64,000 nucleotides of DNA from a virus, in IMG/VR virus record IMGVR_UViG_3300028895_000122; one strand, given 5' to 3'. Of the stretch, positions 686-26,358 are shown one piece after another. Position 1 is the stretch's first letter. Every line of letters begins with the position of its first letter. The notes beneath the pieces were generated by a model. It saw nothing but the letters and a program-made list of their open reading frames with translations. It had not been told where the DNA came from and made no database searches. Both the position numbers and the translations under genes were made by a program.

Positions 686-686
686 T

Positions 687-4095: not shown

Positions 4096-4124
4096 ATTAT
4101 AGTGTCACGTAACATATATGTCAA
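4096..4124 (-). promoter_or_regulatory. sigma70-type early promoter P1 (TTGACA-N17-TATAAT)
   Basis: Minus strand reads TTGACA tatatgttacgtgacac TATAAT, followed by aaattattaaaTAGGAGaattttaaaATG at 4070. Confidence 0.6.
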
Positions 4125-4129
4125 CGTAT

Positions 4130-7004: not shown

Positions 7005-7951
7005 CTTTCTATAGTTTCTTTTATGTTATTCTTAAATTCTGATTCCCATATCACTAAAGTAGGAATACTTCTTTCTTTGAATAACGCATCAATTTTTTCT
7101 TTATCTTTTTTCCAAATATCTTCGGCAAGTAAATCTGCCTGACTATGATAATAGTTTACACTATATTTCTCTGGATTGCAATGCCAATAATCACCATTAA
7201 ACTCTATTGCTCGTCCTTTATGTACAATATCGTAGAAATTTGGTTTATTGTTAGCATACACACAATATTGTTTGGTATTGGCAGAATATTCTAAAGTTTC
7301 TCCTAAATTTAATTCTATTTGTTTAATAAACTCTAATTCTAAATCACTTACATAACCGCCAGTATTGTATTCACTTCGTATTTGCACGGCTTCTTCTACT
7401 GAACAATTATGTCTATTTTGGATTGAATCTATTGTATGTGATTTACCCTTGCATATTTCTATATATTTTTGGTTACCTTCTTCTACACCATATTTTTCAA
7501 TAAAGTATTCTTTAGTGTTAGTATATGCTTGTCTATCACAATAGGCAATCCATCTTTGCGATCCTTCTTCCTCTCCGTATTTAGATATTAAATTCTCTAA
7601 CGTAACAGCACGAGAACGGTTAAATTCCTTAAATTCTTCTTCGCTCCAACCATATCGTTCTTTTTTATATTCGTACGAGTTCGACTTGCGTTGTTTTTCG
7701 ACATAGTTTTGCCATGCTTTTTCACCTTCTACTTTTCCGTATTTCTCGACGAGATTATCTCGTGTTATCGCTGTTTTCTTTGCTAATTCCGCATCAACTA
7801 ACTGAGCATTTGGATATGCTTGTTTATATTCTGTTCCATTCTTAAACTTTCCTGTACACTTGTAAGCAAAGTGAGTCCATTGTAATCTTGGTGCTGTAAA
7901 ACCACATTCTAAACATTTTGGCATTATGGTGCTTCTCCTATCCGCATACAA
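6974..7951 (-). CDS. putative homing/selfish endonuclease: Zn-finger N-terminus, three EKYG.EEG repeats, C-terminal Vsr/DUF559-like PD-(D/E)XK domain
   Basis: An N-terminal CLECG...KC cysteine cluster. Repeats LVEKYGKVEGEKAW, LISKYGEEEGSQRW and FIEKYGVEEGNQKY. The C-terminal GRAIEFNGDYWH...PTLVIWESEF is similar to the Vsr/DUF559 ...RFWEHE end. It lies inside the split-polymerase locus. Confidence 0.5.
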   Translation of the reverse strand: MYADRRSTIMPKCLECGFTAPRLQWTHFAYKCTGKFKNGTEYKQAYPNAQLVDAELAKKTAITRDNLVEKYGKVEGEKAWQNYVEKQRKSNSYEYKKERYGWSEEEFKEFNRSRAVTLENLISKYGEEEGSQRWIAYCDRQAYTNTKEYFIEKYGVEEGNQKYIEICKGKSHTIDSIQNRHNCSVEEAVQIRSEYNTGGYVSDLELEFIKQIELNLGETLEYSANTKQYCVYANNKPNFYDIVHKGRAIEFNGDYWHCNPEKYSVNYYHSQADLLAEDIWKKDKEKIDALFKERSIPTLVIWESEFKNNIKETIERCIEWIKTDK

Positions 7952-7986: not shown

Positions 7987-8135
7987 ATGCGAATTAAAGA
8001 AGTCACAAAAAAGGTTGTTAAAGATGACGCAGACTATAACAATGATGTTATGTCTGGCCATCAAAAGCCTATTCCCGAACTTACACCTGCTCAAGTCAAA
8101 AAAGCAAAAGCCCTCAAAAAGATTAAGAATCTATA
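7987..8135 (+). CDS. possible small Lys-rich ORF (49 aa), opposite strand
   Basis: ATG..TAG open frame MRIKEVTKKVVKDDADYNNDVMSGHQKPIPELTPAQVKKAKALKKIKNL in the gap between the HEG-like gene and the polymerase N-fragment. It overlaps the polymerase stop and has no clear SD. Confidence 0.15.
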
Positions 8136-10315
8136 GAGATAATTAAGTCATCATCCTGCAATTCTGTAGGTTTAACTTCTATTGTAAATCCGTCTCTATC
8201 AACTATTAAACTATGATCCTCTGTAACGGTTATAGAACTACCATCTTCCATTGTGACCTTGTATAGTTGTTTGGATGTTTTATGACGCATCACATAGTTG
8301 ATCGCTCCAAATACAGCCTCATCTTCATGAGCATTATAACCAAGCACCTTTAGATCATGTTGTGCTTCTGTGGGTATGGCATATTCTTTACCGCCATCTT
8401 GCTCTACCTTGTATTGAATCTGATTGTATAAATCTTCTATGGATATGTTGCCTTTGTTGGTGTTTAATGTAGTATCGCCTGTAACTGAGTCGCCGTATAT
8501 GATGCATTCACCAACATGATCATATTCTCCTGTTAAACATTGATTAACATAAGCGTCCATGTGTTTAGCAATTGCTCGCCCTGTTAACGTTGTGCTTTGT
8601 CCTATCCTAGGGTCAAAAAATCTACAATGTGGGTTTAGGATAGCACCATATAAAGAGTTAAGGTTAATCTTTTTAACGAGTTGTCGTTTATCCCAGAAAG
8701 CAATTTCTTCTTTATCGCTTGCTGTTTTTTTCTTTGCTTGTAATTCTTTACGTTCGGCATACCAACGTTCTAGTAACCCTGGAACAACACCTTTCTTTTC
8801 GTATGTAAAGATGGTACCATTTGCACTTATACACCAATTGGTATTCTCGTTAAATATATGGTCATGTAACTCTTTTGCAGTATGTACGCTTTCTTCGCCG
8901 TTAACCCAATCGACAGTAATTTCTGTATCTGTTCTGCGATCCATAACTGCTGTATATTCCAATGTACCAAACAATCCTTCCCAGGCTGCTGCAAACGAAG
9001 CACCTACATATTTCTTACCATTTCTAAACGTCGGCTCTTGTTTCTTTTTAATGTAGTTGTTGGTCATTATAGGACGTAGTTGTCCTACAATAGTTTCATT
9101 AGCCATGTTCAATGCACGAATAACAGATGGATACAGTGAGTTCAAGTCAACCGACCCAATCCATTTATGTACACCTTTTTTAGGGTATGCTACATAAGCA
9201 CCTGCTGCTTGTGTATCTTCTTTGTCGTGGCGTTTACGATCTGGTACTACCATTCCGCGTTCATGTGCTTCGTTGATGATGGCTTGCTCTGTTACCGCCA
9301 CCGCGCCCATTGTTGTAGGAAGCAATACAGTATTAGCATGAGCTAGTTCGTTTGCTAAATCAAGGAACTTGAGTTTCTCATCCAGTTTAGCAAGTAACGC
9401 AACGTCCTGCCTGTTATAGTCAATAAACGTGTAAAAGTCTTGGTTGTATAGTTGGTCAAGTGTGCCTTCATATTCTACCTTACGCTCGCCAAGTTCATAT
9501 TCACCAATTGCATCTAAGCTATAAGAATGCATTTCGTGATATGTATATTTTCTGTACAGTTGCATATAATCCATATGAACCCTACCAACTGTATCATATG
9601 TAATATGTTCTGCACCAAACCGTTCAAATGTACGTTTCTTAGGTAACATACCCCACAAACATAATCTACGAGTGTCGTCTTTACTTAATACTCGTGTAAT
9701 ACGATTTACTGTGTATGGTATATCAAAGCCTTCGCTGTTCCAGCCGCTATACACGTCGGCGTCTTCGATTATATCCAAAAAGGTTAATAACATATCACGT
9801 TCGTGTTCGAAGATAAATGTATTAGGAAACTCTTTACACATTTCTTGTGCTTCTTCGACTGATAATGTTTTTGGCGGCACCGCCAATGTAATAAGACTTT
9901 CCATCCAATCTAAATATACTGTGATAGCAGTAATCTTATTAAACGGATCGTCTGTTGGTGCAAAACCTTTTTCTTGGTGGAAGTCCACCTCGATATCAAA
10001 AAACGCTGTTTGTAGTTTGGGTGAGTCAACATCTTTATAGTTTGTTTCTATACACCTAAAGATAGGATTAATATCAGATTCAAACAATTGTTGACCTGAA
10101 TGCATTTTAATTTCTTTTTGGAACTCTTTGCCAGTTCTACATGAAAACTTCGATACTGGTGTTCCATAAAGACTTATGTATTTCCCTTTTGCTGATGGGT
10201 AATAAAATACATAGTCGGCAGGATATTCTTTGAATAATCTCTGCCCATCTTTTGATCTTTCTACAATTTTAATACGATCATGTTCACGATCGTGTATAGC
10301 GTCAACATAACTCAT
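8123..10315 (-). CDS. 43: DNA polymerase (family B, gp43) N-terminal fragment carrying an N-intein
   Basis: FFDIEV (Exo I), DLNSLYPS (motif A) and KINLNSLYG (motif B) are present. The extein ends ECIIYGD. A 121-aa SVTGDTTL...VTEDHSLIV... tail follows, then stop. Confidence 0.85.
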   Translation of the reverse strand: MSYVDAIHDREHDRIKIVERSKDGQRLFKEYPADYVFYYPSAKGKYISLYGTPVSKFSCRTGKEFQKEIKMHSGQQLFESDINPIFRCIETNYKDVDSPKLQTAFFDIEVDFHQEKGFAPTDDPFNKITAITVYLDWMESLITLAVPPKTLSVEEAQEMCKEFPNTFIFEHERDMLLTFLDIIEDADVYSGWNSEGFDIPYTVNRITRVLSKDDTRRLCLWGMLPKKRTFERFGAEHITYDTVGRVHMDYMQLYRKYTYHEMHSYSLDAIGEYELGERKVEYEGTLDQLYNQDFYTFIDYNRQDVALLAKLDEKLKFLDLANELAHANTVLLPTTMGAVAVTEQAIINEAHERGMVVPDRKRHDKEDTQAAGAYVAYPKKGVHKWIGSVDLNSLYPSVIRALNMANETIVGQLRPIMTNNYIKKKQEPTFRNGKKYVGASFAAAWEGLFGTLEYTAVMDRRTDTEITVDWVNGEESVHTAKELHDHIFNENTNWCISANGTIFTYEKKGVVPGLLERWYAERKELQAKKKTASDKEEIAFWDKRQLVKKINLNSLYGAILNPHCRFFDPRIGQSTTLTGRAIAKHMDAYVNQCLTGEYDHVGECIIYGDSVTGDTTLNTNKGNISIEDLYNQIQYKVEQDGGKEYAIPTEAQHDLKVLGYNAHEDEAVFGAINYVMRHKTSKQLYKVTMEDGSSITVTEDHSLIVDRDGFTIEVKPTELQDDDLIISIDS
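8126..8488 (-). other. split-intein N-fragment (121 aa) at the C-terminus of the polymerase N-fragment
   Basis: Block A SVTGDTTL follows YGD directly. Block B is TxxH (SSITVTEDHSLIV). Confidence 0.7.
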
Positions 10316-13272: not shown

Positions 13273-13947
13273 ATGAAACATTATACTTATATGATTACAA
13301 ATACGTTAAATGATATGCAATATATTGGAGTAAGATCTTGTGACTGTGAGCCCAACGAAGATCAGTATTGGAGTTCAAGTAAATATTTAAAAGAGGATAT
13401 TACTAAATTTGGCATTGAAAATTTCACAAAACAAATTTTGAATATTTGGAATACCAGAGAAGATGCTCTCGAACACGAAATATCTTTACATGAGCAATAT
13501 AATGTATCTACAAATAAATTATTTTATAATAAATCAAAACAAACGTCTGTTGGGTTTGATACAACCGGTATGCCTGGTCCTTGTAATATGCTTGGCAAAA
13601 AGCATACAGAAGAATCGAAACAAAAAATGAGTAAGTCAAAAAAAGGTAAACCCAAAACAACGGAACATAACTTAAAAAACTCTTTATCGCATAGAGGAGA
13701 GAAAAATCCTTTTTATGGTAAGAAGCACACACAGGAATCCATTGAGAAAATTAGAAAAGCATCAACTGGCAAAAATAATCCGATGTATGGAAAACAACAT
13801 TCCGACGAAGTTAAACAAAAGATTTCTCAAATAAACAAAGGTAAGAAAAGAGTTAAAGTAACTTGCCCGCATTGCGGTAAAGTAGGTGGTGGACCTGGGA
13901 TGAAAATGTATCACTTTGATAACTGTAAGGTTAGTAAAAGTATTTAA
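13273..13947 (+). CDS. GIY-YIG homing endonuclease with NUMOD3 repeats (Seg/I-TevI-like)
   Basis: YTYMITNTLNDMQYIGV is a GIY-YIG motif. Repeated GKKHTEESKQKMS / GKKHTQESIEKIR / GKQHSDEVKQKIS are NUMOD3-like. It is a lone plus-strand gene in a minus-strand block. Confidence 0.8.
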   Translation: MKHYTYMITNTLNDMQYIGVRSCDCEPNEDQYWSSSKYLKEDITKFGIENFTKQILNIWNTREDALEHEISLHEQYNVSTNKLFYNKSKQTSVGFDTTGMPGPCNMLGKKHTEESKQKMSKSKKGKPKTTEHNLKNSLSHRGEKNPFYGKKHTQESIEKIRKASTGKNNPMYGKQHSDEVKQKISQINKGKKRVKVTCPHCGKVGGGPGMKMYHFDNCKVSKSI

Positions 13948-15823
13948 TTGATTCCCACCAGTGTTTCCCTTTTGATGGTGCATTCATCCAAGCGGTAAAT
14001 TCCTCCTCGTCGACACCATTGATGAAGTATTCGCGACCACCATGTGTAGTCATCATTACACCTTGACTACCATCTTTAAATTTATAATGATCTAAGTCTG
14101 AAATCCATGACGACCAAACAGGTTCTTCGTTTACCTGTTCTTCTTGTAACTCATCATGTATGATTTTATTTACGGTTTTTTTTAGAGATTCGTTAAGACC
14201 TAAGTGTCTTGATTCTTTACGCATGTTGGCTGGAATACCACCTTTGTCAACATCAAAGCCCATTTTTTCTGCTTCGATTCTAATTTGGTCTGGACCAACA
14301 TCTACTGTTTGATTTTGTTTAGTAATAATACCTACAGCTTCATTCATATTTTTTTTTGATAATGCGTTTCGAAGTTGTTGTATTTCTTTTCGATTACTTA
14401 ATCCTGCTACTTGAGCTGCTTTAAGTAATGCAAATTCTTTTGGAATGTCACGAGATGGATCATTCATAATCTTTATGAATATCTCTGTTGCAGTTTCATA
14501 ATTTTTTTGATGTAGTTTTGAACGTAACCAATCTAATATAAATTCTGGAAACAGAGATAATAACATGTCTGTGCCTATACCTTCGTCAAGTTGTTCGCTA
14601 AACAGGTAAACTGGGATTGAGCGTAATTTAGATTTTACTGCTTTATTTGTTCTATGGTGCCCGTCGATGATGTGCATACCATCTTGGTCTTTATATACAA
14701 CAGGGAAGTCTTCGTAGTCTTGAAATACTGATTCACCACCGCCTGTGTTACTTAACCAATCTTGTGTTGCTTGTAAGTTACGTGGATCAACATGTACTAC
14801 CTTTGGTTTTAAATCTTGTGATTCTATTTTCCAAACTATAGATTCGATATGATTTTTGGCATCCCAATCGTTTGACCAACTTGACGACATTGGCATGTCG
14901 TGTGTGTACATTTCGTCTTCTAATAATTGTTTGGCATTAGCATAATCTTTTGCACGTTCTGCTAAGTCTAATGCACGTTCTATATGCTCTACATCATTCT
15001 TAAAAATCATTGCTACCATTGGGTGGAAGTCTTGTGTGATACGTTTTTGTGCTGGCATTGTTTCTAATCCCATTGCACGTCTAAATGATTCTTCTAACGA
15101 TTCTTGTTCAACATGTTCTAAACTTAATTCTTGATCTTCTAATTCTAATCTACGAGCATATAAACGACCGATGTAACCATGATTACGAAGCATCTTAAAT
15201 GCTAAATTCTCTGGACTGAATTCGCCACCTTCTGCTAATCCTGCTTTGCGATATCTGCGTACAACATCAGCAACATTATCTACGGCATCTAAATCATTCG
15301 ATGCGATGGCATGTAATAATAATTCTTTTAGTTTTTCGTACTTTTCGAATGTTAAATCTTCATCTAAGTTAGCACGTTGTTGAGTTGGTATCTTAATCCA
15401 ATCTTTATTGGCAACACTATAGATACCCATACTAATATGTGGTTGGTTACTGTCTTGAACATATAATTCAACATCAAATCCTTTTACTTTGATATCGTGT
15501 GCATCATTATACTGTGACTTCTTGGCGTTAAATAATTCTGAATATACTTCTGATTGAGTTAATTTTTTAAAATCAACGATAAGATGTAAATCAATATCAC
15601 TATAAGGTGTGTAAGTGAATGCAGCATTAGAACCAGATACTTGTAAGTCTTCGATTACTAAATCTTCGAGACCTAAATGTTCACGGAAGTCATCAGCAAT
15701 GCGTAATAATGCAATACGCACATCAGTCTTCATATCGGTTCCATCCCATAACTCTGGATTGAGTTCATCGTGGAAGTTGATGTGATCGTCTAGTTTCTTA
15801 TTATCTAATTCCGTTAATTTCAT
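13931..15823 (-). CDS. hypothetical 630-aa protein with pol-beta-type nucleotidyltransferase motif and ParB/Srx-like DGHHR motif
   Basis: GSNAAFTYTPYSDIDLHLIV is a GS...DxD NTase signature. HIIDGHHRTNKA is a ParB-like DGHHR motif. The stop overlaps the NMNAT gene start. Confidence 0.4.
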   Translation of the reverse strand: MKLTELDNKKLDDHINFHDELNPELWDGTDMKTDVRIALLRIADDFREHLGLEDLVIEDLQVSGSNAAFTYTPYSDIDLHLIVDFKKLTQSEVYSELFNAKKSQYNDAHDIKVKGFDVELYVQDSNQPHISMGIYSVANKDWIKIPTQQRANLDEDLTFEKYEKLKELLLHAIASNDLDAVDNVADVVRRYRKAGLAEGGEFSPENLAFKMLRNHGYIGRLYARRLELEDQELSLEHVEQESLEESFRRAMGLETMPAQKRITQDFHPMVAMIFKNDVEHIERALDLAERAKDYANAKQLLEDEMYTHDMPMSSSWSNDWDAKNHIESIVWKIESQDLKPKVVHVDPRNLQATQDWLSNTGGGESVFQDYEDFPVVYKDQDGMHIIDGHHRTNKAVKSKLRSIPVYLFSEQLDEGIGTDMLLSLFPEFILDWLRSKLHQKNYETATEIFIKIMNDPSRDIPKEFALLKAAQVAGLSNRKEIQQLRNALSKKNMNEAVGIITKQNQTVDVGPDQIRIEAEKMGFDVDKGGIPANMRKESRHLGLNESLKKTVNKIIHDELQEEQVNEEPVWSSWISDLDHYKFKDGSQGVMMTTHGGREYFINGVDEEEFTAWMNAPSKGKHWWESIKYFY

Positions 15824-16523
15824 CTTCTGCTGCTTCTTGTTCTAATATTTTAATTTGTTTCATGATATCTAAATATCTATTAGCAATATCATCTCTTGAT
15901 TCTGTTAACGGCATTCTAAATAGTGATTCTTCTAATCTAGAAATGCTTTCTGCTAACGATAATTCTTTATCAAATATTTCTTTAATGCGTTCGTTTGGAT
16001 TACCGTATAAGTCTGTGATAACTTTCATACGAGTTTCGTCATCACCTTCGATATACATTTTTCTAATTTCACTAGCACTTTTAATTGATTTACCTAGTAT
16101 TGTAAAGTTAATAGTAGGAGCAACAAAAACATATCCGTGTTCTGACATAGGTGCTAGTTTATTTGTTAGTGGTTGTAAGTAACTTGGGCTTCCATCTTTC
16201 TTTGGTTTGAAACTAATGCGATCAACATCCTTTTGACTTAATGCATAAATTACTGCGGTGTTGTTTGCATCAAATTGACTTGTAACTTCTACAGCATTGT
16301 ACGGGCTTTTAACTTGTACAATCTGTTGAGCAGGAACACCAAGTTCTTGCATCATTACAGTCTTTTGTTCAAAACTAAAAGGACTTGTTACAGGTGCCTG
16401 TTTGCCAGAACTAACCACAAAGACATTATTAGCACCATACTGTTTAACTAACGTTTCGTAGGTGCCTGCATGACCTTTATGAAATGGGTGGAATCGACCG
16501 GGATAAATTACTATTTTACGCAT
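15801..16523 (-). CDS. NadM-type nicotinamide-mononucleotide adenylyltransferase-like protein
   Basis: The N-terminal IYPGRFHPFHKGH equals the GRFQPFHKGH (H/T)xGH signature of archaeal-type NMNAT (NadM) and cytidylyltransferases. Confidence 0.65.
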   Translation of the reverse strand: MRKIVIYPGRFHPFHKGHAGTYETLVKQYGANNVFVVSSGKQAPVTSPFSFEQKTVMMQELGVPAQQIVQVKSPYNAVEVTSQFDANNTAVIYALSQKDVDRISFKPKKDGSPSYLQPLTNKLAPMSEHGYVFVAPTINFTILGKSIKSASEIRKMYIEGDDETRMKVITDLYGNPNERIKEIFDKELSLAESISRLEESLFRMPLTESRDDIANRYLDIMKQIKILEQEAAEDEINGIR

Positions 16524-16717: not shown

Positions 16718-17431
16718 TTATATTTCCTCATTAATTATGTTGTATGTTTTCTTTAAAAGTCCGGGCGCACATATATTAAAAATAGTTTCTATGCCAGGAT
16801 CATTATAGTCAAAGAAAAAATGTTCTTGACAGTATTTACTTGGAAAATTTAACCAACGTTTAAAAGTTCGACATGGTACAACTGTATCGTGATAAATCTT
16901 TAAAAATTGTTTTAGTTTTTGTTTGTGATCGTTTGTTACAATACACGTTTTTAAATAAGTTCTATACTTGTAATCAGAATTTTTTCTAACCAATGAACCC
17001 GAATCGGAATTAATCTTTATTTCTGTTATGCCGGGATCTACTATACCAGGCAATGTTAATAATTCTTCTAAAAACGGTATATTATTCGAATAACAATAAA
17101 AACGGTGTGTTGTAAGAACCAACCGATATTTAAGATCCTGTTCATTGAAGAAGTTAATAAATGAATTTAAGTTTTCTTTTGTGATATCGGTAATCGGTTC
17201 TCTATGCATTGAGCCAACCATACCAAGTGAACGCGGTACATAAAACCCCGAACGTTTATATCTTTCTTTAATTCGTAAGCGTTCATCTAATCCGACACTG
17301 GTTAATCCTCGTACAGAATTAACTTCTTGAAGATACCCACATGCAGACCATTGATACTCATTAAAGAATAGTTTATTGCTTTTCTTTATACTATAATTTA
17401 GGTTTGAATTGGTCCAAGACAATGTATCCAT
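16718..17431 (-). CDS. hypothetical protein
   Basis: Packed ORF. No motif recognised. Confidence 0.4.
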   Translation of the reverse strand: MDTLSWTNSNLNYSIKKSNKLFFNEYQWSACGYLQEVNSVRGLTSVGLDERLRIKERYKRSGFYVPRSLGMVGSMHREPITDITKENLNSFINFFNEQDLKYRLVLTTHRFYCYSNNIPFLEELLTLPGIVDPGITEIKINSDSGSLVRKNSDYKYRTYLKTCIVTNDHKQKLKQFLKIYHDTVVPCRTFKRWLNFPSKYCQEHFFFDYNDPGIETIFNICAPGLLKKTYNIINEEI

Positions 17432-19688
17432 CGTCGCTTATTGTGCCCTCGGGCATTTTCTCCGTTGTTAATTTATTATTCTGTTCGAAGATTATTTCTT
17501 CACCATCTAAAAGAACTGTTAATGTTGTGTCTTTAAGATTTTCAAATAATATCTTTTTACTTAGCGGTACTTTAAGTAATTCATTGATTTTTCTTGATAT
17601 AGGTCTAGCACCCATTTTGCTATCATAACCAACATCTGCAAGAAAATCAATTACAGCTTCAGTAACATTAATTTTAATATTTTTATTTTTAAGTTGTTCT
17701 TTAAGATCTATAATAAACTTATTAACAACCTTCTTAATACTTAGCTCATCTAATTTGTTGAACTTAACAATCGCATCTAATCTATTACGCAATTCAGGTT
17801 TGAAGAACTCTTTAACAGCTTTATCTTCTTCTCCAGACTTTTCTAAGTCTTGCCCAAAGCCGATGTTAAAGTTTTCGTTATCTCTTGCACCTAAGTTACT
17901 TGTTAATAAAATAATGCAGTTCTTTATATTTACTGTTTTTCCTGAAGAACTTGTAATATGTCCTTCGTCGAGCATCTGTAACATAATGTTAGACACATCT
18001 GGATGAGCCTTTTCAATTTCATCAAACAATAAGATACTATATGGATCTTTAGTAATGTCTTGAATAAGTTTACCACCACCTAAATTACCATCTTCGTATC
18101 CTACATATCCAGGCGGTGCACCAATTAACTGTGACACACTATGTCGTTCTTGATATTCTGACATGTCATAACGTAACAGTTCCATGTCTAGGTTCTTGCT
18201 TAACAATTTAGCAAACTCAGTTTTACCGCAGCCTGTAGGTCCAAGTAATAAGAAGCTAGCAACTGGTTTATTTTCTGTAGTTAATCCACCGAAGCTAACA
18301 TAGATACGATCAAGCATTTCATCTACTGCGTCATCTTGACCGTAAAGTTTCTCTTTGATGTTGGCTCCTAAGTCGCGCACCTTATTACAATCTTCATTTT
18401 TAAGACGTTCAACAGGAACAGTAGTAATCTTCTCTGCTTCTCTGAAAATAAGGTCTGGTGTAATCTCAACATCCTTATTATCTTTAGCACGTTGTTTAGC
18501 ACATGCCGCATCTAATAGATCGATTGATTTATCTGGATTCTGTCTATCGTGGATATAACGTGTTGCTAAGTCCACCGCAGTAATACAGGCCTCTTTATCG
18601 ATTCGAACGCTGTGGAATTCTTCGAGTCGACTAGAAAGTCCGTTTAGGATTTTGATAGTTGTATCATGATCTGGCTCGTCGATATTGAGTTTATAGAATC
18701 GACGCATTAATGCACGATCCTGTTCAAATGTTTCGTAAAACTCTTCCCAGGTAGTTGAAGCAATTACTTTAAGTTTGCCGCGTGTAATAGCAGGCTTTAA
18801 CATGTTGGCCATATCTAAGTTGCCATTGCTACCAGCACCAGCACCTGACATAGTGTGTGCTTCGTCGATGAACAAGATACCGTTATTAAGTGTTTCCAAT
18901 GCTTTAATAACTTCTTGGAACTTTTCTTCAAACTCACCACGATACTTCGAACCAGCTAATAAAGATCCAACTTCCAATGACCATACTGTATGTCCTTTAA
19001 GAAACTCAGGAACATCACCTTCGGCTATTTCCTGTGCAAGGCCTTCTACGATTGCTGTTTTACCAACGCCAGGGTCACCTACCATTAGTACATTTGATTT
19101 AAACTTCTTAGCAAGAATTTCAACCGCGTCTTGAATTTCGTTTGCACGACCAATCAATGGTTCGAACTTACCTTCTTCTGCTAATTCGGTTAAGTTAGTA
19201 CAGTGCTCATACAGAATGTCTTCCGCTTGGTCGTTGTTTAATGTTACTTTAGCGCCTTCTTTGTAACTCTTGTTCCAGTGCTCAACAAATGAATCTTTAT
19301 CGACACCGTGTTTCAATAAGAAGTAAGATGCATGACTATTTGTTTCTGCAGAAATACTTAGGTAAAGATCAATGGTTGTAATTTGTTTACGTCCAGAGAA
19401 AAGAACTTGTGTTCCTGCTCTATTGAATATGCGTTCTAATGCATTTGTACGTTTTGGTGTGTCTTTGTATTGTGGGTTAACAATATTTTTAAGATTGACT
19501 AAATATCCTTCGAGTTCTGAATCAAATAAATCAGTATCAACTCCGTAGTTCTTTAATACTTCATCAAATGGTTCGAATCGAATAAGTGCTAACAGTAAAT
19601 GTTCTGTTAATACATATTCATGTTTCTTCTGTTTTGCAATGTGAATTGCATATTCTGTAATTTGTTCAATCTCTGGATTTACTTGCAT
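17391..19688 (-). CDS. ClpA/ClpC-like two-AAA+ domain unfoldase (765 aa)
   Basis: A Clp_N-like [10 protein letters not shown] segment. AAA1 Walker [23 protein letters not shown]2 [16 protein letters not shown]. The length matches ClpA (no ClpB middle domain). Confidence 0.8.
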
Positions 19689-20051: not shown

Positions 20052-20831
20052 TTATTCTTGCAAGTCTTTTATTGATTTAATTAACTCGGTTGGAATATTT
20101 TTCGGTAATCGAGCAAGTAACTTAACATACATATCTCCCTGTCTGTTATGTTTTCCTTTTAACCCTTTGCCTTTGACCCTCATTAAGGTATTAGGTTGAC
20201 TTTTTGCTGGTACAGTTAGTACAATTTTTTGTCCTAAAATAGTTTCAACTTCTAATTTCTTTCCTAGTATGAAATCCCAAAAGTCTAAGGTATATTCCTT
20301 AGTTAAATCTAATCCATGTCTTAACCATTCCTTATCATCTTGTATATTGAATATTATGTGTACTTCAGAATTAGGAATTAAATTTGGGTAGCTAATAACA
20401 TCTCCGTCGTTTATACCTAACGGAATTTCAATTTCTGCTGATCTTACCTGGCCAGAGGCATCTTGAATTGTAACTATCTTTTTGCCGCCGGTAGCAATAG
20501 TTTCTAATTCGACAATTAGTCTAACCCTGACGATATTCGTTCTACGATGTTGTCTTTGCGAGTGATTAAAGAAGTCGTTGAATACACTATTAAAGTCTTG
20601 ACCTTGTCTAAAGTTAAATTCCCTAAAATGTTCTCCGTTTCCAAATTGGTCATGTTGCTTACGTTTAGATTCATCACCTACTATAGCATACGCATCACCA
20701 ATTTCTTTAAATTTAGTTTCATCACCGCCGCGGTCAGGATGATGCTGCATCGCTAGTTTGCGATATGCTTTTTTAATTTCATCTTGGGTGGCTGTTTTTT
20801 TAACACCTAATACTTCATACGGATCACGCAT
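20052..20831 (-). CDS. DnaJ-like J-domain protein (no Zn-finger)
   Basis: N-terminal [36 protein letters not shown] is a J domain with HPD. Confidence 0.7.
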
Positions 20832-20835
20832 AATA

Positions 20836-21093
20836 TTAATTATTCCATAAGTATATGAGGCCAGGAATTATTATAAAAAATTGAGGAAGAAAGTTAGTTA
20901 TAATAGCTTTTTCATTCCACTTATATCCTACATAAACCCAACCGCTCGCGCCAATTAGTTGTAAGTAACTGTTCCACGGAGTCATGCCTAATACATGGAA
21001 TACCATTGCTATTAGAATTATTATAGCACTAGCCCATTTAACAATGAATACAGGATCAGTGTAGGTTTTTGTTTTTGTTTCTGTCGTTGGCAC
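20836..21093 (-). CDS. small membrane protein
   Basis: Hydrophobic helices, two or three predicted. Confidence 0.3.
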
Positions 21094-21442
21094 TTAGTTC
21101 TTCTTCTAATTCTTCGAATGCTGCGTCGACTTGTTCTTCTATGTTGTCGCCTTCATCTAATGTAAAGATATATTCTTTTTCATCGGTGGTAACATGTACT
21201 TCATATTGTTCGTCTTGGTTCGCTTGTCGATCCCACCAATCTTTGTATAATGTTGTAAATTCATCTGTATCTAAATCAACATCAAACCCTTCATCTTCTA
21301 GTGATGGATCAAAGTGAACAAGTTTCATTAAGTTACCGAAGTTAACGTTATTCAACCCATTTTGATATAGTATTATTAGAAGCTCTAATAACATTTCTCT
21401 CGTAGGTGGTGTGAATTCTTCTAGTCTTTGTGTTAGTGTCAT
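21056..21442 (-). CDS. hypothetical acidic protein
   Basis: Packed ORF. No motif recognised. Confidence 0.4.
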   Translation of the reverse strand: MTLTQRLEEFTPPTREMLLELLIILYQNGLNNVNFGNLMKLVHFDPSLEDEGFDVDLDTDEFTTLYKDWWDRQANQDEQYEVHVTTDEKEYIFTLDEGDNIEEQVDAAFEELEEELSANDRNKNKNLH

Positions 21443-21454
21443 TATAATACTTAT

Positions 21455-21488
21455 TAAAAAAGATAGGTGCCCTGTATTATCAAGGCAC
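21455..21488 (-). terminator. putative rho-independent terminator after the TctC-like gene
   Basis: Minus strand reads GTGCC-12 nt loop-GGCAC followed by CTATCTTTTTT. Confidence 0.35.
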
Positions 21489-21498
21489 TTTATCTAAT

Positions 21499-22566
21499 TT
21501 ATTTTACTAAGTTTTCTTTATATACTGATCTAAGACCTAAGGCTTGTGTGTTGAACTTAACCAGTGTTTTTAGAGCATCTTCAGTAGCAAGACCCATTAA
21601 GATATCAACAGTTTTGTTACCATCTTCACCGATAACCCAATCATACTCTCCAATCTTCTGATGGAATACTGATGCTGATTCAGGATTCTCTGCCATTTGT
21701 TTACAAGCTAAACGATACTTCTCGGTATTAGGATTACCTTTGTTAACCCACAATGCTTTTTGAATACTATCACGCCATGTGTGAATCAACGTGTATGCAT
21801 CATAAAGTTCGCCACTAGGTGCTTTACCCCATTTTGCTTTAAACACATCTTCAAACCGTTTACCTGCATAGTTAGGATCATCGTTGTGTTTACCAGTTGA
21901 AATATCTAGTACACCATGATGGAACCAAGTTTCAGCTTCACCTTTGGCAATAATAGGTTCTACTTTCTTTTTGTATGCTGCTGGGTTCTCACGTGAACCA
22001 AGTAACTCACCGCGTTGGAAAGCTAGTCGACGTTCGCCACCTGACATGCCTGATACCCATGCTACTTTATCTTTAAAGATAGCAATGTATTCATCAGTGG
22101 TTTTATCTGGACCACCAATCATTAATGCAATAGCGATACCTTCTGGAACCATACCAGATCCTGCTGCAAATGAGAAGCCATCGTCTTCGTTAACACCTGT
22201 ACGTTTTGCAACGATGATGTTTAAGTTTTGATGACATACTGAATCGTATTCACGATAATCGTAATCTACTTTTTCCTGCACAAACGATACACCGTTACCA
22301 CCATGTGATACCATAATTACATTATCATTTTCATGACGTACTGTATTGTGAAATTTGTTAGGACCTGCCTTATCACGTGCGCCAGGGTTGTAAGAAATCA
22401 CAACATTCTCGCCTTCTAATGCTGGTGCCTTAGCAAATTCTTTTGCTACAATTTCAGCCCATACACTTGTACCACCACCAGGTTTCTGTGGTGACATAAG
22501 CTCAACATCAGCGTATGCAGAAGTTGAAACTAATGCTGCTGCGATTACTATATTTTTAAATTTCAT
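21499..22566 (-). CDS. TctC/Bug-family periplasmic substrate-binding protein
   Basis: A signal peptide, then KPGGGTSVWAEIVAKEFAKAPALEGENVVISYNPGARDKAG matching the PGGGTDxxAR...V(V)xNxPGAxG core of the tripartite tricarboxylate transporter binding family. Confidence 0.6.
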   Translation of the reverse strand: MKFKNIVIAAALVSTSAYADVELMSPQKPGGGTSVWAEIVAKEFAKAPALEGENVVISYNPGARDKAGPNKFHNTVRHENDNVIMVSHGGNGVSFVQEKVDYDYREYDSVCHQNLNIIVAKRTGVNEDDGFSFAAGSGMVPEGIAIALMIGGPDKTTDEYIAIFKDKVAWVSGMSGGERRLAFQRGELLGSRENPAAYKKKVEPIIAKGEAETWFHHGVLDISTGKHNDDPNYAGKRFEDVFKAKWGKAPSGELYDAYTLIHTWRDSIQKALWVNKGNPNTEKYRLACKQMAENPESASVFHQKIGEYDWVIGEDGNKTVDILMGLATEDALKTLVKFNTQALGLRSVYKENLVK

Positions 22567-22575
22567 TTTTTTCTC

Positions 22576-24162
22576 CTATGAATAGTTAATGTTTCCTTTA
22601 TTCTTCCAACCCCACGCTAGAACAATAAAAATTAATGTAAAAATAATAACAAACAATGGGTGTCCTAGTAAATCTTTTGAATCCATGCTTGCCATCATAA
22701 GTTGTCCTTTGCCTACAGACTCACCTGTAAACCAAGACTTTATTTGTATTAAAGGATAACCACCTATGTTGTATAATTTTAGTTGGTATGTTAGTAGTTC
22801 AATTTTATCACCTAATATAAATCCAATCATCATTGCTGGTCTACTAAACTTAAATTGTCTCATTGCTAAACCTAACAATGTAAATATTAATAATAAGATT
22901 ATGTTTTCTATTCCGTATGTCCCGAAGCCACTTGTGTAAGTTGCCCATAATATGAATATCAGTAAGAATGGGAAATAGTATTTGTAAGGCACATAAGCAA
23001 TCATTGTAAAGTATCGCATGAAGTACAAACATAATAGTCCTGTTATTAATGTTGCACCTAAAAAGCCAATGCTCAAGCTATTAAAGAATAACTTGTCACC
23101 TAATAGACTTTGTCCTTCTAAAGTTAGTTCGAATCCTACAGCACCAAATAATCCAATTACTATTGCAGCAAATGGTGCTCCTGGAATACCAAACAAAATA
23201 GTAGGAATAAATGAACTAGCCTTTTGTGCATTGTTACTACCTTCCGGTCCAATGACACCTTTAATGTTACCGTTACCAAACTTTTCTTTTGGGTTAGTTG
23301 CTACGGCTTGACCATAGCTTAACCAATCAGACATAGCACCACCTAAGCCTGGCAGGAATCCAATAATAGATCCAATTAATCCTCCACGCATTGATAGCTT
23401 CCATTCTTTAAATGATACTTTAATCCCATCCCAAAGTTGTTGTGTATGCTCACCTAAGTCGCGTCTTTCTGCTAATGCTGTTTTCTTTAGTGCGAGTAAA
23501 ATCTCAGGCATTGCAAACAATCCAGCAATAACAGGAATAAGCGGAATGCCTTTACCTACGCCACTACCAGACAAGAATTCAAAACCCATTGTAAATCGTG
23601 GCTCTGCTGTTACTGGATCAGTTCCAATCATTGCTAAGAACACGCCCAATGATAATGCTACTAAAGAACGTATCCAATATTGATTAGATACAAAGCCGAC
23701 AGTAACAAAAGCAAGGACACACATTGCCCATAATTCTGCTTGTCCTACACCACCTTCTGTTGGCGGCAATATAACAAAGTCATAATAATAAGGTAACAAT
23801 AAGAATACAGCCGAACCCCATATTAAGCCATTTACCGTGCTTGTTGTGATGGCTGCGCTTAATGCATACGTTGCCTTACCTTGTTGTGCTAACGGAAACC
23901 CATCAACCATTGTTGCTGCGGAACTATTAGCACCAGGTATACCTAATAACACAGATGCAAAGGTATCCCCTGTTGTACTTGCTGCGACAACTGCTGTAAT
24001 GAATATAACGGCTAGATAAGGATCAACTGACTTTAACGCAACAATAAAAGGAAACAAGGCTACGAGGCCTGTTGTTGCTCCTGCTGCTGGAATAATGCCA
24101 ATTAATAGTCCATAAACTATTCCTGCGAATAATGCTAAAAATGCGAGTAAATAAAATTCCAT
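22576..24162 (-). CDS. TctA-like (DUF112) multi-pass membrane permease
   Basis: 528 aa with more than 12 hydrophobic helices. Two internally repeated halves carry Gly-rich GIPGA/LPGLGG segments. It lies 9 nt upstream of the TctC-like gene. Confidence 0.5.
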   Translation of the reverse strand: MEFYLLAFLALFAGIVYGLLIGIIPAAGATTGLVALFPFIVALKSVDPYLAVIFITAVVAASTTGDTFASVLLGIPGANSSAATMVDGFPLAQQGKATYALSAAITTSTVNGLIWGSAVFLLLPYYYDFVILPPTEGGVGQAELWAMCVLAFVTVGFVSNQYWIRSLVALSLGVFLAMIGTDPVTAEPRFTMGFEFLSGSGVGKGIPLIPVIAGLFAMPEILLALKKTALAERRDLGEHTQQLWDGIKVSFKEWKLSMRGGLIGSIIGFLPGLGGAMSDWLSYGQAVATNPKEKFGNGNIKGVIGPEGSNNAQKASSFIPTILFGIPGAPFAAIVIGLFGAVGFELTLEGQSLLGDKLFFNSLSIGFLGATLITGLLCLYFMRYFTMIAYVPYKYYFPFLLIFILWATYTSGFGTYGIENIILLLIFTLLGLAMRQFKFSRPAMMIGFILGDKIELLTYQLKLYNIGGYPLIQIKSWFTGESVGKGQLMMASMDSKDLLGHPLFVIIFTLIFIVLAWGWKNKGNINYS

Positions 24163-24260
24163 TGGGTGTATTATACTTTAATTAAAATGTTAAAGCAATC
24201 GCTTTTGGAATCTTTACTCTAAAGATTTGAAGTATAACAATCGTTATACTGGTTTATTTA

Positions 24261-24998
24261 TTATTGTTTTTCGAATACAAAATAAAAACGTTCGCCGTTT
24301 TTAAATGTTTGGTTTTTGTCTGCTGGTTCATCAATTCTTAATTGTAAAACCTCGCAGTTAAATGTATGGGCTACATTCATAATAAATGCTTGATCCCATT
24401 CAAAGAAATCAATCCATTCTGCATGTTTATCTTGATGTTGTATTCCTGGATTGGCGCGGAATATAATTAATCCACCTTTCTTTGTTAAGCCAACAACCTT
24501 TTTAATCTCGTTAACAATTTTATCCGCACTACCAAAGTTAATACTACCTAAACAAATAGTAACATCATACTCAATATCTGTTTCATATTCTAATGTATGT
24601 AACATTATGTCAGCACGAGTATTAAAAGGATCAATGCCTGTTAAGTTTTGTATCTTACCTTTAAATTCATTATAACCACAGCCAACATCTAATACAGCTT
24701 TTGGGTTCAATGCGTTAACTTGATCTATAATTGCTAATCCACTGTACTTGTATTTCTTTGTTTCTGGTTGCCAAACTTTAGCAAAGTAATTACTTAATAC
24801 TTCTTCGTTGATTACATGAGCAATATCAACTAAGCTGTCCGGCATATCTTCTATATCAGAATGAAATGTACAGTTTATTACTTCACGCATTGCGTTCTTG
24901 TTTAACAATACATGAGGACTATCTTTTATGATTTCATTTAATTTTTTATATATTTTTCTATTCATTTCTTTACCATTGTTACTAATATGTCTGGCCAT
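24261..24998 (-). CDS. class-I SAM-dependent methyltransferase-like protein
   Basis: VLDVGCGYNEF (motif I), GIDPF (post-I) and LTKKGGLIIFRANPG (motif-IV-like region). Confidence 0.5.
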   Translation of the reverse strand: MARHISNNGKEMNRKIYKKLNEIIKDSPHVLLNKNAMREVINCTFHSDIEDMPDSLVDIAHVINEEVLSNYFAKVWQPETKKYKYSGLAIIDQVNALNPKAVLDVGCGYNEFKGKIQNLTGIDPFNTRADIMLHTLEYETDIEYDVTICLGSINFGSADKIVNEIKKVVGLTKKGGLIIFRANPGIQHQDKHAEWIDFFEWDQAFIMNVAHTFNCEVLQLRIDEPADKNQTFKNGERFYFVFEKQ

Positions 24999-25552
24999 AT
25001 ATCTGGTATTTCTACTTTATGTCCGAATGTTTCTTCTACCCATGTACTTGAAAAGTGACTCCACTTTGCATCTACATCATACGCAAACTCAAGTATCTTT
25101 TTATTTTGCCTTTGTATCTCAGTTAACATGTTTGCACTGTCTTGATACCAATCATACTTAGGGTAAGTTATTTTAAACCCGCCTGCTTCATGCCACCAAG
25201 CATAACTGGCCATATCTGGTCTATAAACAAGCATAATCCAATCACCTTGCTTATATGTTCGATATATGTGAATGCCTTTAAGGTCGTGTGCCCATTCGTG
25301 AGACTTAACTATCATACAGCCTGCGTTAGGATCCTGCCATGCTTCATCTGTAAACGAACAATTAGGTTCAAATTCCATGCCTGTGCCAAAGTATGCACCT
25401 TTATGACCGCTATATGAATGATGTGTATAATCTCGCTCTGGTGTTCGATCTGTTGTATTAAATCCTGGCACTTGTTCTTCGATTATTTGTGCAATACCCG
25501 ACCAACGTGATCCAGGTACACCAGTTAAAAATATTCGTTTAGGTAAAGTCAT
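24962..25552 (-). CDS. hypothetical protein with P-loop-like N-terminus
   Basis: FLTGVPGSRWSG is a nucleotide/sulfotransferase-like loop. The assignment is open. Confidence 0.3.
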   Translation of the reverse strand: MTLPKRIFLTGVPGSRWSGIAQIIEEQVPGFNTTDRTPERDYTHHSYSGHKGAYFGTGMEFEPNCSFTDEAWQDPNAGCMIVKSHEWAHDLKGIHIYRTYKQGDWIMLVYRPDMASYAWWHEAGGFKITYPKYDWYQDSANMLTEIQRQNKKILEFAYDVDAKWSHFSSTWVEETFGHKVEIPDIWPDILVTMVKK

Positions 25553-26309
25553 AATTATCTCTTATGTGTTTAAATGCCGCTTCGTGTGCTTCTTCTAACG
25601 GATGCCATGTTTCGCTGATTGCAAAGTTTTTATCTTTTGCCCAGTGATAAAATCCTTTATCCTCAAACCATACTAATTTATCTTTAATTTCATTCTGTAT
25701 ATTTTGATTATATACAGGATTATTCCACATTGTATCTAATGTAATGTCGTCGACTATTGACATTATAAACGGAATGTTTTTATATTTTAATAAAGTATAA
25801 ATGCCAATGATGTTTTGTAACGTGTCGTACTTTGCTTGTAACTCAGAGAATAGATGTTTATAATATAACTTTGCTTCTTTGCTCGTTGAGTCTGGTCGAA
25901 TTTGTTCCCAACGCTTTGATTCTATTTCTAACGTTTCGTTATACCATTCTAATCTATCTACCCATGTCCAGTTGATAACTAACAAATCATCTTCGTTAAA
26001 ATGATTTAAGTATCTGTATATCAATCTAGTAATTTTATGATTACTTGATCCTGGACGAGCATGACAAACATATTCCTTATCTAAATACTTTGCTAGTAAT
26101 GCTGGCCAAGTTTTTTTGCTTGGGTAGTGGAATCCGGAACGTATTCTAAAATCAAAATCCATTTCGTCGGTAAATGCAAATGGAAGGTCAGAGGAATGAT
26201 ATTTCGAAATCTTTTCTCTTTCTTCTAACTCTTTTGCTGAACCTTCGACACAATCTTTTAGGTCTGTTCCGTAGGTAAAACTGTCTCCGAATGCTATTAA
26301 TCTACTCAT
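25539..26309 (-). CDS. SGNH/GDSL-family hydrolase
   Basis: MSRLIAFGDSFTYGTDL is a GDSxxxG block I. Start moved to the ATG at 26309, because the track's TTG at 26339 lies inside promoter P3. Confidence 0.55.
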   Translation of the reverse strand: MSRLIAFGDSFTYGTDLKDCVEGSAKELEEREKISKYHSSDLPFAFTDEMDFDFRIRSGFHYPSKKTWPALLAKYLDKEYVCHARPGSSNHKITRLIYRYLNHFNEDDLLVINWTWVDRLEWYNETLEIESKRWEQIRPDSTSKEAKLYYKHLFSELQAKYDTLQNIIGIYTLLKYKNIPFIMSIVDDITLDTMWNNPVYNQNIQNEIKDKLVWFEDKGFYHWAKDKNFAISETWHPLEEAHEAAFKHIRDNYDFT

Positions 26310-26329
26310 AATTTGTTTATACTCGAAAA

Positions 26330-26358
26330 AGTATAGCAAAACAAATTGATTTTGTCAA
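26330..26358 (-). promoter_or_regulatory. sigma70-type early promoter P3 (TTGACA-N17-TATACT)
   Basis: Minus strand reads TTGACA aaatcaatttgttttgc TATACT. Confidence 0.55.

Follow-up and report, generated by a model that had tools for sequence, protein, structure and literature searches.

Locus organization and viral context

Two co-oriented genes on the minus strand are the subject of this report; positions refer to the window, i.e., the whole 64-kb stretch of viral DNA that was analysed. The first gene (22576..24162, minus strand) encodes a polytopic permease of 528 residues that belongs to the TctA type (Pfam TctA, PF01970). The second (21499..22566, minus strand) encodes the 355-residue precursor of a divergent periplasmic solute-binding protein of the TctC/Bug fold, recognised through a profile chain and a fold search. 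The two open reading frames are separated by 9 nt (22567..22575), as had been stated in the sequence-only reading of this DNA. The segment that comprises the tctA stop codon and the 9-nt spacer with its ribosome-binding site (22567..22578, minus strand) belongs to a junction that reads ...tca TAG GAG aaaaaaa ATG, in which an AGGAG Shine-Dalgarno sequence overlaps the stop codon of TctA and is located 8 nt ahead of the ATG of the binding-protein gene. This spacing of stop codon, ribosome-binding site and start codon suggests that the two genes are co-transcribed and that their translation is coupled.

The two-gene unit is closed by an intrinsic-terminator-like hairpin followed by a T-run (21457..21488, minus strand), which is identified here by its match to the consensus. 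The hairpin, GTGCCTTGATAATACAGGGCAC, begins 10 nt past the stop codon of the binding-protein gene; its minus-strand stem (21488..21467) is 8 bp long with 5 G-C pairs and a 6-nt loop, and the T-run, CTATCTTTTT, follows. The hairpin proposed earlier is thus present, and terminator-like sites number 5 in the region 20700..25200, compared with 2.0 ± 1.5 expected from shuffles. At the other end of the unit, the 98-nt intergenic region 5' of tctA (24163..24260, minus strand) contains a perfect AT-rich 8-bp hairpin, AGTATAAC-GATT-GTTATACT (24250..24231), and a TATAAT hexamer 7 nt 5' of the tctA ATG. No Shine-Dalgarno sequence is evident in these 98 nt. A separate promoter scan showed no excess of sigma-70-like sites (16, compared with 19.3 ± 4.9 in shuffled sequence).

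The genes surrounding the pair are those of a phage, in agreement with what had been claimed for this DNA. The window also encodes a T4-type DNA polymerase, Rnl1, PNK and PhoH, together with virion structural and head-decoration proteins, and the nearest relatives of its DNA polymerase and Clp ATPase are found in jumbo phages. Phage genes of the same strand flank the transporter pair on both sides, and G+C content is even across the window. The source is an uncultivated marine jumbo myovirus, a distant relative of PA5oct and Atu_ph07.

Next to the 98-nt region lie a methyltransferase-like gene (24261..24998), a P-loop-like gene (24962..25552) and an SGNH/DUF6071 gene (25539..26339). These three genes were considered as a transporter-specific module, but a functional link could not be established, as the first two are also found near DUF6552, a small membrane protein discussed below, in marine myovirus contigs that lack the transporter. 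A profile search of the methyltransferase-like protein against the PDB gave nothing significant, and its single-sequence structure model has a pLDDT of 35. A methyltransferase gene is located beside the pair in most loci. In two divergent loci, L013 and L014, the methyltransferases beside the pair have no BLAST similarity to the neighbour methyltransferase of the window, which leaves such a link conceivable.

The sequence-only reading also placed an NMNAT gene 5 kb away. A 240-aa open reading frame is indeed present (15801..16523, minus strand), but its assignment as a nucleotidyltransferase is weak to moderate, with 22.7 bits for Pfam CTP_transf_like (cutoff 21) and E=6.7e-11 for PHROG 395 'cytidyltransferase'. 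The NAD-salvage partners NAMPT, PncB and NadC are absent from the subset of window open reading frames that was scanned. To connect the transporter with the NMNAT-like gene, or to name a substrate for it, would be speculation.

Identity of the permease and of the binding protein

The permease is recognised directly. The PF01970 match is full-length (E=1.4e-86, 291 bits, residues 9-446 against profile positions 2-423 of 423), which confirms the earlier placement of the membrane protein in the TctA family. Members of this family have a duplicated motif, G-Hy3-G-Hy3-G-Hy2-P-G-Hy-G (PMC5812351), which in the phage protein is exact in GGLIGSIIGFLPGLGG and nearly matched in GIVYGLLIGIIPAAG. The phage TctA is 34-37% identical to TctA proteins of cellular SBP-TctA-TctB operons and ~28% identical to enterobacterial TctA.

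The binding protein starts with a Sec-type signal peptide (residues 1-19; 22510..22566, minus strand) that is predicted to be cleaved at AYA|D. As read by eye, the N-terminus consists of MKFK, a hydrophobic stretch and the cleavage site (MKFKNIVIAAALVSTSAYA|DVEL). Residues 6-24 form the only hydrophobic segment of the protein, and the absence of Cys from its sequence means that there is no lipobox. Each of the 38 aligned homologues has a corresponding signal at its N-terminus.

The peptide strings previously quoted as a Bug/TctC core are found in the 355-aa translation (PQKPGGGTSVWAEIVAKEF...ENVVISYNPGARDKAGPNKF). It should be noted that only two routes led to the family assignment of this protein, namely a search for similar folds and a chain of profile comparisons in two steps. 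Direct searches were negative: no match was obtained in Pfam (E<=0.1), NCBIfam or PHROGs, or in the PDB, the latter searched both by sequence and by family profile; the Pfam TctC model (PF03401) leaves the window protein unmatched, and no Pfam family is recorded for the listed members of its family. The chain, however, connects the protein to the Bug fold through cellular relatives. Thus, the viral family aligns with a cellular family of ~365-aa proteins over 309 columns (hhalign E=1.2e-43), and this cellular family, whose members are located in SBP-TctA-TctB operons, in turn aligns with BugE, BugD and MatC at profile-profile E-values of 5e-20 to 1.5e-16 (about 1e-20 for BugE and 1e-18 for BugD). 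Twelve of its 35 members match Pfam TctC, and one relative, P0179, reaches PF03401 with 30.4 bits (cutoff 27). Viral and cellular long binding proteins have the segments PSGxxYxAY and QKxLW in common. The phage protein is 23-26% identical to the cellular long TctC-like proteins and only 10-15% identical to solved Bug proteins. In the fold search (BFVD), the best viral structural matches are Bug proteins of uncultured Caudovirales phages (E=3e-9). The searches therefore place the membrane protein in TctA by PF01970, and the binding protein in the Bug/TctC fold by the profile chain.

The residues that are invariant among the binding proteins (PQKPGxGT, PGAR(D), HGGN, GSGMVPE and RxNP) cluster in strand-to-helix loops of the kind that line the cleft in the Bug fold. 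The first cleft loop, P-x-x-P-G-G-G-T, is kept. Other loops are changed relative to Bug proteins: PGAGG is replaced by PGARD, and the Asp of PGGxTD by Ser. Because of these altered positions, the ligand chemistry may differ from the classical carboxylate 'pincer'.

Distribution, selective constraint and the small subunit

The gene pair is restricted to viral contigs, tightly linked and constrained. The binding protein was found in 448 IMG/VR contigs, the viral status of which is a computational call and some of which are 250-344 kb long, and in 6 MAG contigs among 185,579 GTDB species. The 6 MAGs belong to unrelated phyla, and 4 of the 6 contigs carry the same phage neighbour genes. Of 72 distinct loci, 66 have a co-oriented tctA as the gene immediately preceding that of the binding protein, and in another 5 tctA is no more than 1.6 kb away; moreover, the identical locus and gene order were recovered from at least 4 independent samples. 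Both transporter genes are under strong purifying selection, the median dN/dS being 0.075 for the binding protein (155 viral pairs) and 0.072 for TctA (132 pairs of viral homologues). Among cultured phages, neither the DNA search nor the binding-protein search gave a match, and the search with the TctA protein returned matches of at most 29% identity. Those TctA matches came from one Salmonella genome record, from four contigs of faecal metagenomes, and from two short records without annotation, whose names refer to E. coli and Salmonella phages.

To our knowledge, TctB belongs to every characterised TTT system. No small polytopic open reading frame resembling TctB is present in the window, in which a simple hydropathy scan predicts three or more TM helices for TctA only. 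The same type of scan revealed no recurrent small polytopic open reading frame within 5 kb across ~90 viral loci, these being incomplete genomes. A phmmer search with two cellular TctB queries against the open reading frames of 94 loci likewise returned nothing at E<10; this result should be read in light of the poor conservation of TctB. The earlier remark that no TctB is adjacent is therefore borne out and extends to the whole window and to ~90 related viral loci. TctB proteins of different systems share ~27% identity, so that BLAST searches with TctB fail, and the small subunit of the analogous TRAP transporters is essential (PMC5812351). Since TctB is absent and its TRAP counterpart is essential, the pair alone may be non-functional unless the host supplies TctB.

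Proposed function and its alternatives

In our opinion, the gene pair probably constitutes a phage-encoded secondary uptake system of the TTT type, dependent on its binding protein and reduced to two parts. According to this model, a Gram-negative marine host would be infected and the pair transcribed as one unit. TctA would be inserted into the inner membrane, while the binding protein would be exported by Sec and its signal peptide cleaved after Ala19. In the periplasm, the binding protein would capture a small organic anion, most probably with a carboxylate group; the solute-loaded protein would then close and dock on TctA, which would drive the solute inward at the expense of a Na+ or H+ gradient. 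In this way the pair would act as an auxiliary metabolic module that raises or retargets nutrient uptake of the infected cell for phage production. The conservation of the pair in hundreds of viral contigs suggests that infected cells probably gain virus-made, high-affinity uptake of an organic acid.

How such a system would manage without a small subunit of its own is the question on which two of the alternatives turn. In one of them, which is a variant of the two-part uptake system rather than an alternative to transport, the phage TctA and binding protein assemble with a host TctB, or the binding protein feeds a host TctAB, on the pattern proposed for cyanophage PstS and the host PstCAB. 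We regard such a hybrid as a real but lesser possibility. TctB is absent from the window and the related loci and yet present in the nearest cellular relatives; marine oligotrophs, e.g., SAR11, commonly possess TTT systems and express them strongly (PMC11796062); and the essential small subunit of TRAP transporters argues in the same direction (PMC5812351). On the other hand, a phage TctA that is only about one-third identical to cellular TctA proteins would have to fit a foreign TctB that is itself poorly conserved (PMC5812351), and, were the binding protein alone needed, the adjoining TctA would not stay constrained in nearly every locus. The missing third subunit might instead be encoded by the phage itself, as a functional analogue of TctB. 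The candidate is DUF6552, a small membrane protein with ~3 TM helices encoded two genes downstream of the binding-protein gene (20836..21093). It is highly conserved (65-88% identity) and, the window's own copies aside, is found within 5 kb in 16 related loci; in six of these or other related loci (L010, L058, L062, L075, L076 and L081) it lies directly 3' of the binding-protein gene, with stop and start codons overlapping or abutting. However, DUF6552 is widespread in marine myovirus-like contigs without TctA or the binding protein within 5 kb, and in the transporter-less contigs L100-L107 it clusters with homologues of the neighbour genes MT245 and p196; the majority of TctA/binding-protein loci have no DUF6552 within 5 kb. 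Moreover, it measures 75-85 aa with ~3 TM helices, compared with ~160 aa and 4-5 helices in TctB. Its occurrence together with MT245 and p196 homologues where transporter genes are lacking led us to downgrade this candidate: given that occurrence, its size and its TM count, the co-location looks like shared synteny. DUF6552 is probably not a dedicated TctB substitute, and its identity as the third subunit appears highly improbable.

Two further explanations dispense with import by the phage-encoded pair altogether. The proteins could serve in periplasmic sensing, in blocking or remodelling of the envelope for superinfection exclusion, or in solute export. Some Bug/TctC proteins do signal and many are 'orphans' without a paired transporter (PMC5812351), and the cleft motifs described above depart from those of classical Bug proteins. 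Nevertheless, the binding protein is strictly paired with a full-length TctA under constraint, as is characteristic of a transport unit, no sensor-kinase partner is encoded nearby, and every characterised TTT system is an importer (PMC5812351), all of which makes a non-import role unlikely. The other explanation, that the genes are cellular DNA, whether misplaced in assembly or binning or captured recently and carried along without viral function, takes its support from the six GTDB MAG contigs, the two most divergent of which (L013 and L014) have non-phage-like neighbours, namely SAM methyltransferases, B12 radical SAM enzymes and an SBF symporter. It is largely refuted by the recovery of the same gene order from independent samples, by the flanking same-strand phage genes and uniform G+C content, by the number and length of the IMG/VR contigs, by strong purifying selection within the viral clade, and by the scatter of the MAGs over unrelated phyla, most of them with phage neighbour genes.

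The two-part uptake system could also be taken further. On this tentative and rather doubtful extension, the pair represents a virus-specific TTT lineage without TctB, in which an autonomous TctA and a long TctC-like protein have diversified almost only in marine jumbo and T4-like myoviruses and import a single solute that limits the phage. A methyltransferase beside the pair in most loci (in L013 and L014, methyltransferases that share no BLAST similarity with it), together with the NMNAT-like gene 5 kb away, hints that this solute could serve, for example, as precursor in a pathway linked to methylation or to pyridine nucleotides. Were the extension true, virus-made transporters would bring dissolved organic matter into a sizeable fraction of the marine cells that are infected.

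Phage genes that alter host uptake are few, and they are mostly single components such as PstS. What is unusual here is that one phage carries both a permease and a dedicated binding protein. Hundreds of marine viral contigs contain this pair, which is strongly constrained. Because the binding protein matches no curated family, surveys of viral metabolic genes have logged at best an orphan 'tctA domain'. The pair offers a well-delimited and testable instance in which a virus would control the uptake of dissolved organic acids at sea, as well as a natural experiment on the ability of a TTT permease to function in the absence of TctB; the identity of its substrate would reveal the nutrient that limits replication of these large marine phages.

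Comparison with known systems

The closest characterised counterparts are TctCBA of Salmonella enterica and BctCBA of Bordetella pertussis (TC 2.A.80), with which the phage pair shares a PF01970 permease and a Bug/TctC-fold protein that starts with a signal peptide, the two being encoded side by side in the same orientation. Unlike these systems, the phage pair is virus-encoded, has no TctB and is arranged in the order A-C rather than C-B-A; its binding protein is ~55 residues longer and is missed by the Pfam TctC model. The cellular long TctC-like proteins (e.g., P0181, from contig SKKH01000025.1 of GCA_007121555.1, and P0192) are of the same subfamily, with ~360-380 aa and an adjacent TctA. 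These cellular systems, in contrast to the phage pair, keep a 161-aa TctB (PF07331) and have the order C-A-B, and a third of the cellular proteins reach Pfam TctC, whereas the window protein matches no Pfam family.

Among phage-encoded uptake functions, PstS of cyanophages is a periplasmic phosphate-binding protein that is thought to boost host uptake during infection via the host PstCAB. That is an ABC system with a permease and ATPase provided by the host, whereas here the phage supplies the permease as well and the energy for transport would come from an ion gradient rather than from ATP. The TRAP transporters DctPQM are likewise secondary and binding-protein-dependent, and their architecture is analogous, with a small membrane subunit besides the large permease and the binding protein.

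Related observations have been made on viral DNA. A tctA gene appears among the putative auxiliary metabolic genes of viral contigs from SUP05 (Roux et al. 2014; PMC4164917), and 'tricarboxylate transport' genes were noted on a myovirus scaffold from an OMZ (Gazitua et al. 2020; PMC8115048). In both cases, as here, a TctA domain is found on marine myovirus-like DNA; these reports devote a single line to it ('protein domain hit only', role 'unknown'), and in them the cognate binding protein, the absence of TctB, the size of the clade and its restriction to viruses went unrecognised. Finally, BFVD contains PBP2_Bug_TTT or 'Bordetella uptake protein' entries from uncultured Caudovirales phage (e.g., A0A6J5T247), i.e., the Bug fold under viral taxonomy, as in the present case. 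Those proteins are of canonical length (280-317 aa), recognisable by sequence and only 11-14% identical to the protein described here, and hence represent a different subfamily.

The transporter pair and its phage setting

The sequence-only reading described a two-gene operon, encoding a TctA-like permease and a periplasmic binding protein, in a phage; every detail of that observation is confirmed. Both ORFs are present on the minus strand, 9 nt apart: the TctA ORF (528 aa, 22576..24162) and the binding-protein ORF (355 aa, 21499..22566), whose translation contains the peptide strings quoted in that reading. The binding protein also has the claimed signal peptide, MKFKNIVIAAALVSTSAYA preceding DVEL, which by sequence is of the Sec type, with an AxA cleavage site and without a lipobox; the only hydrophobic segment of the protein spans residues 6-24. 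An AGGAG motif, the ribosome-binding site of the second gene, lies across the TctA stop codon, 8 nt upstream of the second ATG. The suspected terminator corresponds to a hairpin (21488..21467; 8-bp stem with 5 G-C pairs) followed by CTATCTTTTT, 10 nt past the second stop codon. In the region upstream of tctA (24163..24260, minus strand), a perfect AT-rich 8-bp hairpin (24250..24231) is located just past the stop codon of the preceding gene, a TATAAT hexamer is found merely 7 nt ahead of the tctA ATG, and no Shine-Dalgarno sequence for tctA is evident. This layout could yield a transcript with a very short leader or none.

The window is indeed phage DNA. Its gene products include a family-B DNA polymerase of the T4 type, which an intein splits, along with RNA ligase 1, polynucleotide kinase, PhoH, a clamp-loader-like AAA+ protein, and both structural and head-decoration proteins of the virion. 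The closest relatives of the polymerase (~50% identity) and of the ClpA/B-like ATPase (~40%) belong to the jumbo myoviruses PA5oct, Phosso, Atu_ph07, and SCTP-2; the phage record search returned no near-identical record. The G+C content is even over the locus, and independent assemblies of at least 4 samples show the same gene order surrounding the two ORFs. The N-terminal part of the polymerase (8123..10315, minus strand) closes with the N-terminal splicing region of an intein; a separate ORF ~2 kb downstream (5098..6084, minus strand) opens with the C-terminal end of the intein and continues into polymerase sequence. The two are separated by unannotated ORFs (e.g., 6974..7951), an arrangement that could reflect an intein that is split or has been invaded. 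A GIY-YIG (SegE-like) homing endonuclease with four NUMOD3 motifs (13273..13947, plus strand) is encoded on the strand opposite to nearly all of its neighbors. A PAS-GGDEF diguanylate cyclase gene (42133..42969, minus strand; GGDEF E=1.8e-32, PAS_9 E=8e-7) suggests that the phage could manipulate host c-di-GMP signaling.

Identity of the two proteins

Profile searches and topology analysis, both among the checks proposed for the sequence-only reading, identify the permease as TctA and tie the binding protein to the Bug/TctC fold. The 528-aa protein matches Pfam TctA (PF01970) over the entire profile (E=1.4e-86). The TctA family motif, G-Hy3-G-Hy3-G-Hy2-P-G-Hy-G (PMC5812351), occurs exactly at GGLIGSIIGFLPGLGG and as a near-match at GIVYGLLIGIIPAAG. 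Hydropathy resembles that of cellular TctA, including the final C-terminal helix, and this comparison reveals no added TctB-like domain.

The 355-aa protein has no match in Pfam, NCBIfam, or PHROGs, and none among PDB sequences, whether searched as a single sequence or as a 38-member family profile. Three independent lines of evidence nevertheless place it in the TctC/Bug family. The first is the fold: a confident AlphaFold2 model built from the family alignment (pLDDT 92.3, pTM 0.89) retrieves TctC/Bug-family proteins as its top 17 PDB matches in Foldseek. The second is a chain of profiles. When 1.84 billion cluster representatives were searched exhaustively by profile, just 515 relatives emerged, so the family is not simply "TctC"; its distant relatives form a cellular family of ~365-aa proteins (alignment A2), which aligns with the viral family over 309 columns (hhalign probability 100%, E=1.2e-43). 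A2 in turn matches BugE (4.9e-20) and BugD (8e-19), as well as MatC, TphC, and Bug27; Pfam TctC picks up 12 of the 35 A2 sequences, and P0179 scores above the curated cutoff. The third is gene context, as the A2 members P0181 and P0192 are located in SBP-TctA-TctB operons; the window protein is 26% identical to the P0181 binding protein (blastp E=1.5e-25). Because all three lines agree, the earlier motif reading is right: the Bug loop PFAPGGxTD has its counterpart in PQKPGGGTSVW, and NxxGAGG in NPGARD. The viral cleft loops differ from those of Bug proteins, with PGARD for PGAGG and Ser for a conserved Asp. Invariant residues of the family map to loops leading from strand to helix that border the cleft of this fold, which suggests a single conserved ligand class.

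Gene neighborhood, distribution, and the third subunit

The absence of an adjacent TctB-like subunit, noted earlier, extends well beyond the immediate neighborhood. TctA is the sole ORF of the 64-kb window for which three or more TM segments are predicted; two cellular TctB sequences found no match in the ORFs of 94 loci; and within 5 kb of the pair, no small polytopic ORF recurs from locus to locus. Since none of these searches found TctB, the viral cassette is bipartite. A conceivable substitute is DUF6552, an 85-aa membrane protein with ~3 TM helices encoded two genes downstream (20836..21093, minus strand; Pfam E=6e-16, invariant NFLPQ motif). DUF6552 is very strongly conserved (65-88% identity on hundreds of contigs from marine metagenomes and viruses). 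In 16 other loci it is found close to the pair, where it often abuts the binding-protein gene. However, it is also widespread on marine myovirus-like contigs that have neither TctA nor the binding protein within 5 kb, where it clusters with homologs of two genes preceding tctA: a methyltransferase-like gene (24261..24998, minus strand; VLDVGCGYNEF motif, no Pfam family matched) and a 196-aa P-loop-like gene (24962..25552, minus strand) whose product has an N-terminus (GVPGSRWSG) resembling a degenerate P-loop or a sulfotransferase. These genes accompany DUF6552 in varying order and orientation on many marine myovirus contigs, transporter present or absent; the block is a common synteny unit adjoining the pair, so a specific TctB role for DUF6552 is unlikely.

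The adjacent SGNH/GDSL-like DUF6071 gene (25539..26339, minus strand) belongs to this cluster in several transporter-carrying loci. Directly downstream of the pair are genes for a DnaJ homolog (20052..20831, minus strand) and a 765-aa ClpA/ClpB-like double-AAA+ chaperone (17391..19688, minus strand), an arrangement kept in the closer viral relatives (L015-L025). On a related 267-kb jumbo-phage contig (L005-L008; 1131..3379 and 14053..15201), a 79-aa DUF2061 membrane protein is encoded directly 3' of the binding-protein gene, and a radical SAM enzyme, a carbamoyltransferase, a SPASM-domain protein, and an Hc1 histone-like protein are found near the pair. The most divergent pairs, L013 and L014, on contigs that may be cellular, lie amid Methyltransf_11 SAM methyltransferases, radical SAM enzymes that bind B12, another radical SAM enzyme, and an SBF-type Na+ symporter (regions 3986..7050 of L013, and 28..4519 and 7053..9864 of L014); there, a 348-aa polytopic membrane protein starts within the end of the binding-protein gene.

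The pair is virus-associated, tightly linked, and constrained. The binding-protein family comprises ~1,500 clusters at 90% identity, nearly all unnamed metagenome proteins without a Pfam domain. A motif-plus-tblastn scan located it in 448 viral contigs of IMG/VR, some of them 250-344 kb long, and in only 6 contigs of GTDB (genomes of 185,579 species), all of them MAG contigs from unrelated taxa, 4 with the same phage neighbor genes. No record of the phage collection contains it, and TctA matches there are at most 29% identical. In 66 of the 72 distinct loci whose upstream sequence is long enough, TctA is the immediate upstream neighbor and shares the strand; in 5 more it is within 1.6 kb. TctA homologs show the same two-way split as the binding protein (61-81% identity for those of ~520-535 aa, ~52% for those of ~472-488 aa), and median pairwise dN/dS is 0.072 for TctA and 0.075 for the binding protein.

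Probable transport function and comparison with known systems

The best-supported reading is that the pair constitutes a phage-encoded, binding-protein-dependent uptake system driven by an ion gradient. After export, the binding protein would capture a small anionic organic solute and hand it over to TctA, through which the ion gradient would drive uptake; TctA may act alone or together with a host TctB. Marine oligotrophs commonly have tripartite tricarboxylate transporter (TTT) systems and express them strongly (PMC11796062). No function has been assigned to TctB, and archaea carry TctA alone, while the small subunit of the analogous TRAP transporters is essential (PMC5812351).

Structural comparison does not single out a substrate: top structural neighbors with differing ligands (nicotinate or quinolinate, adipate, aspartate, glutamate, malate, terephthalate) score almost alike and the viral cleft loops diverge from Bug. 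The NMNAT gene reported 5 kb away stands as a nucleotidyltransferase-like ORF (240 aa, 15801..16523, minus strand), weakly matched by Pfam CTP_transf_like (22.7 bits, cutoff 21) and by the N-terminal half of PHROG 395 "cytidyltransferase" (E=6.7e-11); its identity as NMNAT is plausible. This ORF, together with quinolinate binding by Bug27 and Bug69 (PMC11452294), is the sole basis for the idea of an NAD-precursor substrate. The class-I SAM methyltransferases and B12 radical SAM enzymes of L013 and L014 may hint at a methylation-linked pathway; in the main clade, a methyltransferase-like gene is nearly always near the pair, without BLAST similarity to those methyltransferases.

Prior literature contains only passing mentions of viral tctA: Roux et al. 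2014 listed it as a "protein domain hit only" of unknown role (PMC4164917), a review repeated this (PMC6359870), and Gazitua et al. 2020 noted "tricarboxylate transport" genes near viral norB/nirK (PMC8115048). We found no prior description of the cognate viral binding-protein family, the TctB-less architecture, or its scale. The evidence supports the original interpretation and the reality of the finding; what is new is a bipartite TTT cassette restricted to viruses, whose binding protein escapes curated models. It overturns nothing, but provides a clean, widespread, and experimentally tractable example of nutrient uptake encoded by a phage, as well as a natural test of TctB dispensability. 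A few canonical Bug proteins have been deposited as "uncultured Caudovirales phage," but these belong to a different subfamily. Compared with TTT transporters, the phage system differs in lacking TctB and in that the curated TctC model does not recognize its binding protein, whereas it shares their permease, binding-protein fold, signal peptide, and operon organization.
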